A stretch of DNA of 53,972 nt, from contig DASXIR010000088.1 in NCBI GenBank assembly GCA_036497895.1, positions 1-53,972 on the forward strand, in the 5' to 3' direction. How positions within the stretch are numbered: the first letter of the stretch is position 1; every line of letters starts with the position of its first letter. Of the stretch, positions 4,439 through 8,480 are shown one piece after another. The DNA comes from Vicinamibacterales bacterium (GTDB lineage: Bacteria > Acidobacteriota > Vicinamibacteria > Vicinamibacterales > CAVVIG01). The translations under genes and the position numbers were made by a program. The notes beneath the pieces were generated by a model, which searched no databases, was not told the DNA's origin, and saw nothing but the letters and a program-made list of their open reading frames with translations.

Positions 4439-5055
4439 CTGTGGTGTCTCCGTATCGGCCGGCGTACGGGCTTGAAGCGAGATCGCCGGCGTCCTTCGAG
4501 TGGACTTAGTAACGCGTCCACCGCGCGCATCTCGAGTTGATCTCGCGCCCACATCGCATCGGTGATCGCGCGAACGACTCTGTTGTGGAGCGCCCGTTTT
4601 CGCGCCATGACACGTTGCCTCGCGGTCCAACGCCATCTGTGGCTTCAACAGGGTCGAACCGCACGCGTCGTGCCAATTGGGATCCCGTAGCCGCAGTGTG
4701 GAGTGCGGCCTTCTCTCTTGCGTTCCGCGGGTGATTTTTCGCGGTGACGACGAAAAACTCCCACCCTCGACCACGAGCTGTGGCGGGCGTGCGGCGCCTC
4801 CCTGAGAGTCATTGCCGGAATTTCGGCAGCGACACCAGCACGCTCGCAGTCACACAAGTCGTTCCGACATGGCGACTTTCCGTGTCAGTGGCGGAGAATT
4901 CGTTACCTCCGTCTTGATGTGGACGACACGGTCGTTCGGTTGATCCGGCAATCCGTTCAATGGAACTGGCAACGGCCCCTTACTCAGTGTGCATGTTGAG
5001 AATCGCCCGTCGGCGAACACTTGAAGGGGCACGGAACATGCTGCTATCTTGATCG

Positions 5056-5559
5056 ATGGCTCCAACCGCGCTGCCGATGCCTGCACGCCGGCCAAGCCGT
5101 CCGCTCACGGAGTTGATCGAGCGCGAAAGCCAGCGACGTCAGCGTCGACGGTTCGTCTGGTGGGGAGCAATCGCGCTCATTCCCGTTGTGGCTGCTGTTT
5201 TGTGGTTCGCACTGCGGCCGCGTCCAGTGCCATTCGCGGCACGATTTCGCGTGCAGCCTGTCGCCGAGGGTGATCTCGTGCGCGAGATTCGCGCGACCGG
5301 TCACGTCGAAGCCGTGACGACCGTGCAGGTGGGTGCCGAGATCTCCGGTCGCATCGCGACCGTCGACGTCGATTACAACGCGCGCGTCAGAAGCGGGCAG
5401 GTGCTGGCGCGGTTCGACCGCACGGCCCTGGCGGCGCAACTGGCGCAGACGGAGGCGATGCTCGCGGCGACGCCCGCCGCGCTCGAGCAGGCGCCACCGC
5501 GCGCGATCGTGATATCGCGGGCAAGACGGCACTCTTCACTCGAGCCCTCCAGAACATGA
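5056..5559 (+). pseudogene. truncated HlyD-family membrane-fusion (efflux adaptor) protein, N-terminal ~150 aa only
   Basis: A TM anchor is followed by the typical adaptor N-terminus (GDLVREIRATGHVEAVTTVQVGAEISGRIATVDVDYNARVRSGQVLARFD, then the start of the coiled coil). The reading frame ends at 167 aa, whereas family members are roughly 350-450 aa. No pump or ATPase partner follows. Confidence 0.55.
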
Positions 5560-5604
5560 AGATTCTCGCCGAGGGCGGCACGTTGCCGCCGCGTCAGGGA
5601 CGGG

Positions 5605-6303
5605 GTGCGAACCCGGGCCGTTGAGGTGCCGTCGTCGCTCGACGCACAGCTCCGGTTGTGGATCTATCGCCACTTTGTAGAGGTCTGTCGCGCGCCAAGC
5701 GTGATCGAGATCGCGAGTCGCTTTGGAATCACATCGAAAGAGGTCGAGGAGGTGCTCGGTCGTCTGGAGAAGGAAGCTGATGCCCTGGTCCTGATCCCAG
5801 GCACTCGCAACATCTGGATGGCCGAACCGTTCTCTGCGGTCCCCACCTCGTTCGTCGTGCGCTCCGGCAACCGCCAATGGTGGGGCAATTGCATTTGGGA
5901 TGGACTGGCCATCCTGGCTCTCCTCGGTCTTGACGGGACCGTGTCGACTGCGTGCCCGCAATCGGCTATGCCGCTGGCCGTAACGGTCGCTGATCGGACG
6001 TTGAAAGACGTTCAGGGCGTTGTCCACATTGCCGTTCCGGCAGCCGACTGGTGGTGCGACATTGGCTTCACTTGAGCCACGATGTCGCTCTTCCGGTCGG
6101 AAGAGGATGTCCACGCATGGTGCGAAGAACGTCAGAGGGCGGCGGGTGCGATCTTCGACGTCGCGACACTGTGGCGGCTGGCTGCTGTGTGGTACGACGA
6201 TCGCCTTGACCTCAACTGGAAGCGCCGGACGATCGGCGAGCGTCAAGCCATTCTTGACGCCGTCGGCCTCAGCGGCCCGTTTTGGCGCTTGACCTCGTCG
6301 TAG
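5605..6303 (+). CDS. MerB-like (alkylmercury lyase family) protein, read through an in-frame TGA at 6073-6075 (candidate selenocysteine)
   Basis: ORFs 5605..6075 and 6082..6303 share one frame and are separated only by TGA plus 2 codons. The joined product matches MerB blocks: NCIWDGLAILALLG (Cys96/Asp99 block), VSTAC (Cys117 block) and FT-TGA-ATMSLFRSEEDVHAW (Cys159/160-FFAS...W block). The start is uncertain (GTG 5605 or GTG 5623). Confidence 0.6.
6081..6111 (+). promoter_or_regulatory. putative bacterial SECIS-like hairpin downstream of the in-frame UGA
   Basis: The upper stem CUCUUCC (6088-6094) pairs with GGAAGAG (6099-6105) around the tetraloop GGUC (6095-6098). G6087 is bulged. The lower helix GAUGUC (6081-6086) pairs with GAUGUC (6106-6111) using two G-U pairs. 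The hairpin begins 5 nt after the UGA, and the loop starts 19 nt after it. Confidence 0.45.
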
Positions 6304-7619: not shown

Positions 7620-7880
7620 TTAGGCATTGCTCAGCGTGTCGGATATCCGTAACTTGATGAAGGCCTGACGCGTGACACCGATGCGTCGGGCTTCTTGATC
7701 GATCGCGCGCAGCAGGTCGACGGGGAAGTCGACGTTGACACGCTGGACTTCGCGGCCCGGACGACGAGCCTTCGACCAATCGACATAGGGAGCCATGTTC
7801 CCGGTGGGATCGTCGACCTGTAGGTCGGCGAGGCGGTCGAACTCTTCAGCCGTGATCATCTTCGGCTGATCCTTCTTCAT
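7620..7880 (-). CDS. brnA: BrnA-family antitoxin (CopG/RHH-like)
   Basis: The C-terminus VNVDFPVDLLRAIDQEARRIGVTRQAFIKLRISDTL is typical of BrnA. ORF 7620..7940 overlaps brnT by 95 nt, so I chose the internal ATG at 7880. Another candidate start is 7859. Confidence 0.7.
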   Translation of the reverse strand: MKKDQPKMITAEEFDRLADLQVDDPTGNMAPYVDWSKARRPGREVQRVNVDFPVDLLRAIDQEARRIGVTRQAFIKLRISDTLSNA

Positions 7881-8133
7881 ACTGCGCTTTCTCGTCCGGG
7901 CGTGCACGGCGGACCGAGATGATGCGGATTGTTTCTTCATGGCGATATGTCACCGTCGCGGTCCACGTTATCCCGCCGATCTGACCCACGATCTGAAAAC
8001 GAGGCTCGTCGATCGACCGCCCTGGGCCTTCAATGCGGTCCGGGTCCAGCCATAAGGCCTGCGCCTCCACGAAATCGATGCCGTGTTTCGCTTTGTTCAC
8101 AGCAGACTTAGCGGCATCGAACTCAAACCGCAT
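7846..8133 (-). CDS. brnT: BrnT-family toxin (DUF497 ribonuclease)
   Basis: The sequence MRFEFDAAKSAVNKAKHGIDFVEAQALW...IRIISVRRARPDEKAQY matches the BrnT/DUF497 pattern. The gene lies upstream of its antitoxin and overlaps it. Confidence 0.8.
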   Translation of the reverse strand: MRFEFDAAKSAVNKAKHGIDFVEAQALWLDPDRIEGPGRSIDEPRFQIVGQIGGITWTATVTYRHEETIRIISVRRARPDEKAQYEEGSAEDDHG

Positions 8134-8403: not shown

Positions 8404-8480
8404 TGGTGGGCGCTAGAGGACTCGAACCTCTGACCTCGTGCGTGTGAAGCACGCGCTCTAACCAACTGAGCTAAGCGCCC
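8404..8480 (-). tRNA. tRNA-Val (anticodon CAC), CCA encoded
   Basis: The reverse complement is GGGCGCTTAGCTCAGTTGGTTAGAGCGCGTGCTTCACACGCACGAGGTCAGAGGTTCGAGTCCTCTAGCGCCCACCA. It folds as a cloverleaf with a 7-bp acceptor stem, anticodon loop TTCACAC and TTCGAGT T-loop. Confidence 0.9.

Follow-up and report, generated by a model that had tools for sequence, protein, structure and literature searches.

A probable SECIS element downstream of an in-frame UGA at the catalytic cysteine position of a MerB-family gene

Introduction

The 53,972-nucleotide (nt) contig DASXIR010000088.1 from a Vicinamibacterales bacterium (assembly GCA_036497895.1; the whole stretch is referred to below as the window) carries a gene related to the organomercurial lyase MerB that contains an in-frame UGA codon, and a hairpin begins shortly after that codon. 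The question raised by this locus is whether the UGA ends a truncated protein, as the public annotation implies, or is decoded as selenocysteine (Sec) under the direction of the hairpin, which would then be a selenocysteine insertion sequence (SECIS). A sequence-only reading of the window had proposed the second answer, and the analysis described here leads us to conclude that the hairpin is very likely a bacterial SECIS inside the coding region of the MerB-family gene. The basis for this conclusion is the structure itself, its conservation and covariation among orthologues, the constraint on synonymous sites, the conservation of the UGA and of the frame beyond it, and the place of the UGA opposite the catalytic Cys159 when the protein is aligned to MerB, to which the absence of the hairpin from homologues with a Cys codon and the agreement with published SECIS criteria can be added.

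Public gene calls end at the UGA (e.g., the 156-residue 'MAG TPA: organomercurial lyase', in which MAG denotes a metagenome-assembled genome), and the usual annotation consists of a truncated 'organomercurial lyase' followed by a 70-residue hypothetical protein. Hundreds of copies of this MerB-like gene from soil bacteria are annotated as truncated.

Results

The UGA occupies the position of a catalytic cysteine of MerB

The predicted complete coding sequence of the MerB-family selenoprotein extends from 5605 to 6303 on the plus strand (the strand of all features below unless indicated) and comprises 232 codons, of which the UGA at 6073-6075 is codon 157. Candidate start codons are the GTG at 5605 and the GTG at 5626, the latter being implied by the nearest database protein (P0001, 149 residues, 99% identical), and the true stop codon is the TAG at 6301-6303. 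The two open reading frames (ORFs) found on either side of the UGA, 5605-6075 and 6082-6303, share one frame, and the continuation after the UGA covers 6076-6303. When read through, the 232-residue product matches profile positions 1-125 (of 126) of the Pfam MerB domain (PF03243), the E-value being 8.9e-29 and the score 100.5 bits (gathering cut-off 27), and this match spans the UGA.

Active-site residues were assigned by sequence and profile alignment to entries of the PDB. The codons for Cys96-Ile-Trp-Asp99 (5890-5901), part of an NCIWD motif that is invariant in the homologues, are the counterparts of the MerB catalytic residues Cys96 and Asp99 and align with C96 and D99 of 1s6l. The UGA, the predicted Sec157 codon, aligns with the catalytic Cys159 of MerB (1s6l and 3f0p) and with the equivalent Cys of MerB2 (5c17), and a profile built from 20 family members gave E-values of 2.4e-20 against 5c17 and about 1e-10 against the MerB entries. 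All three catalytic positions of MerB (Cys96, Asp99 and Cys159) can be located, the third being UGA (predicted Sec) here and Cys in some homologues.

The UGA and the frame beyond it are conserved across phyla

Relatives of the gene were collected in two scans. A scan of one genome per species returned 228 relatives, of which 80 loci were kept for analysis, and in a metagenome scan seeded with Cys-type proteins at least 557 contigs encode relatives, of which 80 loci were analysed. TGA is present at the site codon in all 80 genome loci, as in the window, and in 78 of the 80 metagenome loci, the remaining two comprising one TGC and one site that was left unread. Across the 160 loci examined, 158 carry the MerB-like gene with UGA, and the stop codon at the site is TGA in each of the 159 UGA-form sequences and never TAA or TAG. 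The genome loci belong to Actinomycetota, Acidimicrobiia, Gaiellaceae, Terriglobia and other Acidobacteriota, Chloroflexota, Calditrichia and KSB1. Reassignment of the genetic code was also considered as a source of the in-frame codon and was rejected, since TGA is the ordinary stop codon of 23 of the 36 other ORFs in the window.

The C-terminal 75 codons (6076-6300), which would be translated only if the UGA is decoded, show conservation that crosses phyla. Relatives maintain a frame of about 73 codons after the UGA, with the motifs xTMLLFRSEEHV..W and WY.DRL embedded in the pattern x-T-M-L-L-F-R-S-E-E-H-V..W...WY.DRL..W.R.T..E...F...GLTG.FW. The best 120 database homologues cover just 50-67% of the read-through query and are 131-195 residues long, save one protein of 321 residues with a long N-terminal extension, and all 23 of the aligned homologues with an intact active-site region terminate in ...IG[FH]T. 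When the C-terminal 75 residues were used as the query, 474 database proteins matched, the majority of which are separately called ORF fragments of 70-73 residues that begin at a Met three codons past the UGA and supply the missing half of the wrongly called genes. The smaller remainder consists of full-length proteins, mostly with Cys at the site.

Two of the database proteins have unusual architectures. In P0114 (145 residues), the N-terminal part (...GNCIWG) is fused straight to the C-terminal WYDDRL... without the entire active-site region, so that the sequence has either been deleted internally or been wrongly assembled. P0122, a tandem-repeat protein of 1013 residues with the repeat ...RSWRLNPVWYDDCTNAKS..., has 15 matches to residues 21-43 of the C-terminal query and looks unrelated to MerB.

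A hairpin with a GGUC tetraloop begins 5 nt after the UGA

The SECIS-like hairpin occupies 6081-6111 and starts 5 nt after the UGA. Its lower helix consists of 6 base pairs (bp), two of them G-U, formed by GAUGUC (6081-6086) with GAUGUC (6106-6111), and is separated from the upper helix by a bulged G on the 5' side (6087). The upper helix is a 7-bp pairing of CUCUUCC (6088-6094) with GGAAGAG (6099-6105) that carries an apical GGUC tetraloop (6095-6098); the loop derives from an Arg CGG and a Ser TCG codon and begins 19 nt after the UGA. Upper helix and loop together (6088-6105) make up the conserved core and, by analogy with known elements, the proposed SelB-binding site. The helices, bulge, loop and spacing, first given in the sequence-only reading, were all recovered from the sequence and by RNAfold, in which the minimum free energy (MFE) structure of 48 nt (-18.8 kcal/mol, 80% of the ensemble) is exactly the one described and that of 42 nt (-17.0 kcal/mol, 94% of the ensemble) is identical to it. 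The upper stem-loop alone has a folding energy of -9.3 kcal/mol and a z-score of -3.09, with none of 200 shuffled sequences as good.

A covariance model (R1) was made from 150 orthologous elements and run against the window without filters. The hairpin gave the sole significant match (54.4 bits, E 2.9e-11), which arises by construction because the window sequence is among the 150 rows of the model. No second copy of the element was found in the window with R1, the next match having an E-value of 0.32.

Helix, loop and spacing are conserved at the RNA level

Conservation of the RNA was assessed in a gapless alignment of 48 nt from the UGA onward, in which the U of the UGA is column 1. The alignment holds 150 distinct sequences, and loops and helices were counted in 157 distinct orthologues. 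An uninterrupted helix of at least 5 bp closes a loop at the fixed distance in 156 of the 157 orthologues, the loop is GGUC in 142, and the 19-nt spacing between UGA and loop is identical in all 157. All loops but one (AGUC, with G second) start with G. The consensus obtained with RNAalifold comprises columns 18-22/27-31 and the loop, the pairs 16-22/27-33 are formed in 69-100% of the 150 sequences, and the core hairpin is contained in the MFE structure of 134 of the 157 orthologues when only the downstream RNA is folded and of 121 in a context of -36 to +60. Across phyla, the near-invariant core of the element reads UUCCGGUCGGAA. The lower helix is loosely conserved, its pairs A10-U38, U11-G37 and G12-C36 coming from the Met and His/Val codons, and the position of the unpaired 5' base is not conserved, since it is found at column 13 in most orthologues and at column 15 (G6087) in the window.

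Because the peptide LFRSEE itself encodes the helix, synonymous sites were tested against the codon usage of the same genes. Ser is TCG in all 81 cases (24.9 expected) and Arg is CGG in 77 of 79 (23.3 expected), while Phe is TTC in 79 of 79 (61.5 expected) and the first Glu is GAA in 59 of 80 (24.1 expected), even in these GC-rich genes. Several pairs also vary on both sides. At pair 18-31, 134 sequences have C-G and 15 have G-C, a change that combines Leu CTC to CTG with Glu GAG to Gln CAG. Pair 19-30 occurs as U-A, U-G or C-G, the last of which joins Phe to Leu with GAA to GAG, and pair 21-28 is C-G except for U-G in L147 and U-A in L152, where Phe TTC to TTT accompanies Glu to Lys. For the 13-pair structure as a whole, 83.6% of cells are paired compared to 38-55% when the 3' partner is slid, and none of 500 shuffles reached the observed covariation score. 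Of the two refuting tests that had been set for the hairpin when it was first proposed, the one on conservation is answered by these data: in the 158 relatives that keep the TGA, the hairpin is retained and is not broken by synonymous changes, the synonymous sites being nearly frozen, and two-sided changes were found at pairs 18-31, 19-30 and 21-28, some of them together with an amino-acid change.

A sub-clade of twelve loci (L118, L120, L121, L125, L128, L131, L135, L137, L145, L146, L158 and L160) differs in the loop. Its peptide reads ...GFT*STMLLFR[D/A]EEH, and a hexaloop CG[U/G]G[A/C]N (CGUGAC, CGGGAC, CGUGCA and similar) replaces C-GGUC-G, while the TGA and the CUCUUC/GAAGAG helix are retained, indicating that the helix is more constrained than the exact loop.

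The hairpin is absent from homologues with a Cys codon

Five homologues (L081, L161, L164, L165 and L166) have TGC (Cys) at the site, and the GGUC hairpin is absent from all five. At the position of FRSEE these forms have FRDDE, FPSAD, FDSES, FDSEA and FETEG, which suggests that it is the RNA, and not the enzyme, that holds the Sec forms so strictly to FRSEE. Retention in UGA orthologues and loss in Cys-codon homologues is the behavior expected of a SECIS, here seen with a small Cys sample. The closest relatives of the Cys form P0145 (P0275-P0389, from Solirubrobacter and others) are mostly truncated calls of about 128 residues that cover 62% of the query, and they seem to form another Sec-containing sub-clade, one whose N-terminus is shorter. 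Since the neighbors of P0145 are mostly such truncated calls, the Cys forms would be rare islands among Sec-dominated clades.

In two further loci, L162 (601-1203) and L163 (601-1203), the site codon is TGG (Trp), located about 136 codons into the gene. Both keep a perfect CTCTTCC-GGTC-GGAAGAG hairpin, and both lack about 10 codons just past ...FRSEEH. A recent change from TGA to TGG is the probable origin of both genes, which may be inactive.

The element resembles known bacterial SECIS elements

In the bacterial SECIS (bSECIS) model of bSECISearch, as summarized in the legend to Figure 2 of PMC13188914, the apical loop has 3-9 nt and the upper stem 4-16 bp, a G lies within the first two loop positions in a G[G|U] pattern, the distance from UGA to loop is 16-37 nt, and the MFE is -7.5 kcal/mol or lower. 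The window hairpin agrees with all four criteria of that legend, having a loop of 4 nt that opens with GG, a stem of 7 bp and a spacing of 19 nt, together with an MFE of -17 to -18.8 kcal/mol. It also lies inside an ORF, directly downstream of an in-frame UGA in the MerB domain. No structural difference from the consensus bacterial SECIS was apparent, the window element being unusual in its sequence invariance across phyla, and as a SECIS it is a textbook case.

The hairpin had originally been likened to the SECIS of Escherichia coli fdhF, described as an element with a GGUC loop 18 nt past the UGA and a bulged base on the 5' side. The fdhF sequence given there is right, since the 42-nt UGACACGGCCCAUCGGUUGCAGGUCUGCACCAAUCGGUCGGU is present with 100% identity under fdhF in more than 5,400 E. 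coli genomes, and folding places its GGUC loop at nt 22-25, 18 nt past the UGA. Both elements lie in the coding region directly after the UGA (UGA140 in fdhF), both present an apical GGUC loop, and in both the lower helix reaches back toward the UGA. The loop of the window element opens at nt 23, with 19 nt between it and the UGA, and that of fdhF at nt 22, and the upper element starts 12 nt after the UGA here compared to 11 nt in the fdhF minimal element. The likeness holds for the loop and the spacing. It does not extend to the bulge: the unpaired 5' base of the window element is a G located 7 bp below the loop, whereas that of fdhF is a U located 4 bp below it, and family-wide only the upper helix and loop are conserved. 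The upper helices also differ in sequence, with 7 bp (CUCUUCC/GGAAGAG) here and 4 bp above the bulged U in fdhF, and over 42 nt the window hairpin is more stable (-17.0 versus -14.2 kcal/mol). By this comparison, the window element would work like the fdhF element but is not a copy of it. The SECIS of Moorella thermoacetica fdhA that was co-crystallized with SelB reportedly also shows a CCGGUC-type apical sequence.

If decoding follows the E. coli fdhF precedent, a ribosome nearing the UGA at 6073-6075 would melt the upstream RNA and the lower helix, while the upper helix (6088-6094/6099-6105) and its GGUC loop would stay just outside the mRNA entrance. The C-terminal domain of SelB, carrying GTP and Sec-tRNA(Sec), would bind the loop, and the tRNA would be delivered to the A site, for which release factor 2 would compete. 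The UGA would then be read as Sec and 75 further codons translated up to the TAG at 6301-6303. The predicted product of about 230 residues would combine Sec157, Cys96 and Asp99 in a MerB-type active site, making it a putative selenium-containing carbon-metal bond lyase. The binding of SelB, the insertion of Sec and the substrate of the enzyme are all inferred.

Discussion

Evidence that weighs against a SECIS

Several observations weigh against the assignment of the hairpin as a SECIS. Relative to shuffled sequences, the fold of the window is better by only a modest margin, with a z-score of -2.05 for 48 nt (10 of 200 shuffles as good) and of -2.48 for 42 nt (3 of 200); the earlier expectation that it would fold better than shuffled sequence is upheld, if only at a z-score of about -2 for the window alone. 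When 33 nt of upstream sequence are added, the resulting 111 nt adopt another MFE structure, built with coding RNA from upstream, in which CCGACUGG (6044-6051, Ala-Asp-Trp codons) pairs with the SECIS apex CCGGUCGG (6093-6100). Such pairing would sequester the loop until the ribosome passes, and a translating ribosome would have melted the upstream partner. The single window sequence does not prove the case, and the evidence beyond chance is the comparison with the 157 orthologues. That comparison has weak points of its own. Loops other than GGUC (GUGC, GGGA, GUGA, AGUC and GGGC) are found in 15 of the 157 orthologues, some of them without a U at the place equivalent to fdhF, indicating that GGUC is not absolutely required. 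The two-sided pair changes come mostly from one or a few clades, with the G-C form of pair 18-31 found mainly in one Terriglobia clade, and therefore reflect few independent events. In addition, the Cys-form control consists of only five sequences.

The genomic data are likewise silent on the decoding machinery. No selA, selB or selD gene was detected by Pfam scan of 20 ORFs in the 54-kb window, and a tRNA-Sec was found neither in the tRNA scan of the window nor in 120 flanks of related loci, leaving the Sec competence of the hosts unproven in the regions scanned. Finally, no Rfam match was obtained at the gathering threshold over the window or at E-values up to 10 over 5900-6300, indicating that the element is not filed under any Rfam family.

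Alternative explanations of the UGA and hairpin

The alternative that survives best, which we nevertheless consider very unlikely, is that the UGA is decoded or bypassed without Sec, either by near-cognate read-through stimulated by the hairpin or because the gene is split and translation re-initiates at the AUG at 6082, with the C-terminal piece assembling with the 156-residue N-terminal piece. Downstream structures are generally able to stimulate read-through, an ATG is present 6 nt after the UGA in most orthologues (columns 10-12), and gene callers separate the C-terminal piece of 70-73 residues as its own ORF. Nevertheless, about 20% of orthologues lack a G at column 12 and have ATC, ATT or ATA (Ile), hence no start codon there, arguing against re-initiation, and a split at an active-site residue would remove that very residue. 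Neither form of the proposal accounts for a stop codon that is TGA in 159 of 159 sequences, that is aligned exactly to the catalytic Cys for which homologues have TGC, and that is followed by a loop and spacing copying the SelB-binding element of fdhF.

Slightly less probable still is a conserved RNA element with another job (mRNA stabilization, an RNase site, translational pausing or binding of a regulator) that lies near the UGA by coincidence. The ability of the loop to pair with upstream coding RNA (6044-6051 with 6093-6100) and the perfect hairpin of the two TGG variants would be compatible with such a role. However, all TGA forms have the element and the five TGC forms lack it, its distance to the UGA is exact to the nucleotide in 157 sequences, and its loop sequence, stem length and spacing match the SECIS model; moreover, the TGG variants look like recent derivatives of TGA forms with a C-terminal deletion.

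The least probable alternative, that the hairpin is a by-product of a conserved LFRSEE peptide with self-complementary codons in a truncated or decaying MerB pseudogene, draws on the presence of F and S in canonical MerB as well (HFFAS) and on a window fold only about 2 standard deviations beyond shuffles, and is already largely refuted by codon choice restricted far past the needs of the peptide, by a peptide that shifts in step with the pairing partner (Glu to Gln, Glu to Lys and Phe to Leu) and drifts away from FRSEE in Cys-codon homologues, and by retention of TGA and an intact conserved frame in 158 sequences of several phyla, which would not be expected of a pseudogene.

Relation to SaoL and canonical MerB

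The protein can also be compared with known members of the MerB family. With the canonical enzymes MerB and MerB2 (1s6l, 3f0p and 5c17) it shares the Pfam MerB domain, Cys96, Asp99 and the third catalytic position, the residue at the latter being encoded by UGA (predicted Sec) here and Cys in the canonical enzymes. A Sec at this position is already known from SaoL, a MerB-like selenoprotein with a Cys-Sec motif that is encoded in a nine-gene SAO locus of exclusively anaerobic hosts, mostly Firmicutes with some spirochaetes and Deltaproteobacteria (Haft & Gwadz, bioRxiv 10.1101/2022.07.06.499078). The window protein and SaoL have in common the MerB fold family, the (here predicted) Sec at the position of MerB Cys159 and the routine truncation of database entries at the UGA, which falls 50 residues short of the actual C-terminus in SaoL and about 75 residues short of it here. 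They differ in the motif, which is Thr-Sec (GFT-U) here and Cys-Sec in SaoL, and in their hosts, which are Actinomycetota, Acidobacteriota and Chloroflexota MAGs and metagenome contigs here and anaerobes for SaoL.

The scores against protein family models point in the same direction. The window protein scores 20.9 bits against the SaoL model NF040728 (cut-off 140), the best E-value among 20 members being 1.4e-17, and it has neither the Cys-Sec motif nor an SAO neighborhood around the gene. Against the NCBIfam MerB equivalogs, it scores 38.5 bits for NF009710 (cut-off 193) and 30.8 bits for NF033555 (cut-off 200). With scores far below all cut-offs, it is a protein of the MerB superfamily but neither a MerB equivalog nor SaoL, and it appears to be part of a separate, abundant and mis-annotated Sec-MerB clade. 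This clade would be characterized by the motif GFT-U-xTMLLFRSEEH, by largely soil lineages and by Sec forms that vastly outnumber Cys forms.

MerB is unmentioned in the main texts of GOS 2008 and Peng 2016 and likewise in those of the publications on deep-Sep and BSepDB. In the 2022 and 2026 selenoproteome reviews, the SaoL type is the only MerB-like selenoprotein entry, and no earlier description of a Thr-Sec MerB clade was found in the selenoprotein literature, coverage of which was incomplete. We tentatively propose, with a little less than even confidence, that the window gene belongs to a large, previously undescribed clade of Sec-containing MerB-like lyases that is distinct from SaoL and from canonical MerB; the odds are fair that these proteins make up an undescribed selenoprotein subfamily.

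Genomic surroundings

The neighbors of the MerB-like gene in the window encode a P-type ATPase, a Usp protein and an epoxide hydrolase, and none of the mer operon genes merA, merR, merT and merP was found by Pfam scans (20 ORFs) in the annotated parts of the window. No convincing conserved neighborhood emerged across the 158 loci, in which the top cluster is a spurious antisense ORF and the next is present in only 29 loci. The stretch immediately upstream of the gene (4775-5604) holds only a 167-residue ORF (5056-5559) with weak coding-type GC content at third codon positions and no Pfam match, and may be a gene remnant or non-coding DNA. Further downstream on the minus strand, 7846-8133 encodes a BrnT ribonuclease toxin (PF04365, E 1.5e-21) and overlaps a 106-residue ORF (7620-7940) without a Pfam match; the pair (7620-8133) is probably a BrnT/BrnA type II toxin-antitoxin system, situated beside a tRNA-Val gene (8404-8480). 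In one related locus, from a Gaiellaceae MAG (L039, 2053-2128, minus strand), ARAGORN reported a tRNA (its label being 'tRNA-???') whose anticodon, ggct, has four bases.

Implications

Because gene calls stop at the UGA, the catalytic residue is lost from every predicted protein, and surveys that require the MerB Cys159 would discard these genes. The family also constitutes an unusually clean natural data set on the tolerance of a SelB-binding hairpin, comprising compensatory changes, a hexaloop sub-clade and TGG and TGC derivatives, with the hexaloop sub-clade in particular serving as a natural probe of the latitude that the cognate SelB allows. As for the enzyme, a Sec placed where a MerB-type site contacts the metal should alter both reactivity and metal preference, and since the gene lies outside a mer operon, its substrate may not be an organomercurial. 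If the proposed clade is real, it would imply that selenium-dependent carbon-metal bond chemistry, acting on methylmercury or on another organometal, is widespread in soils.

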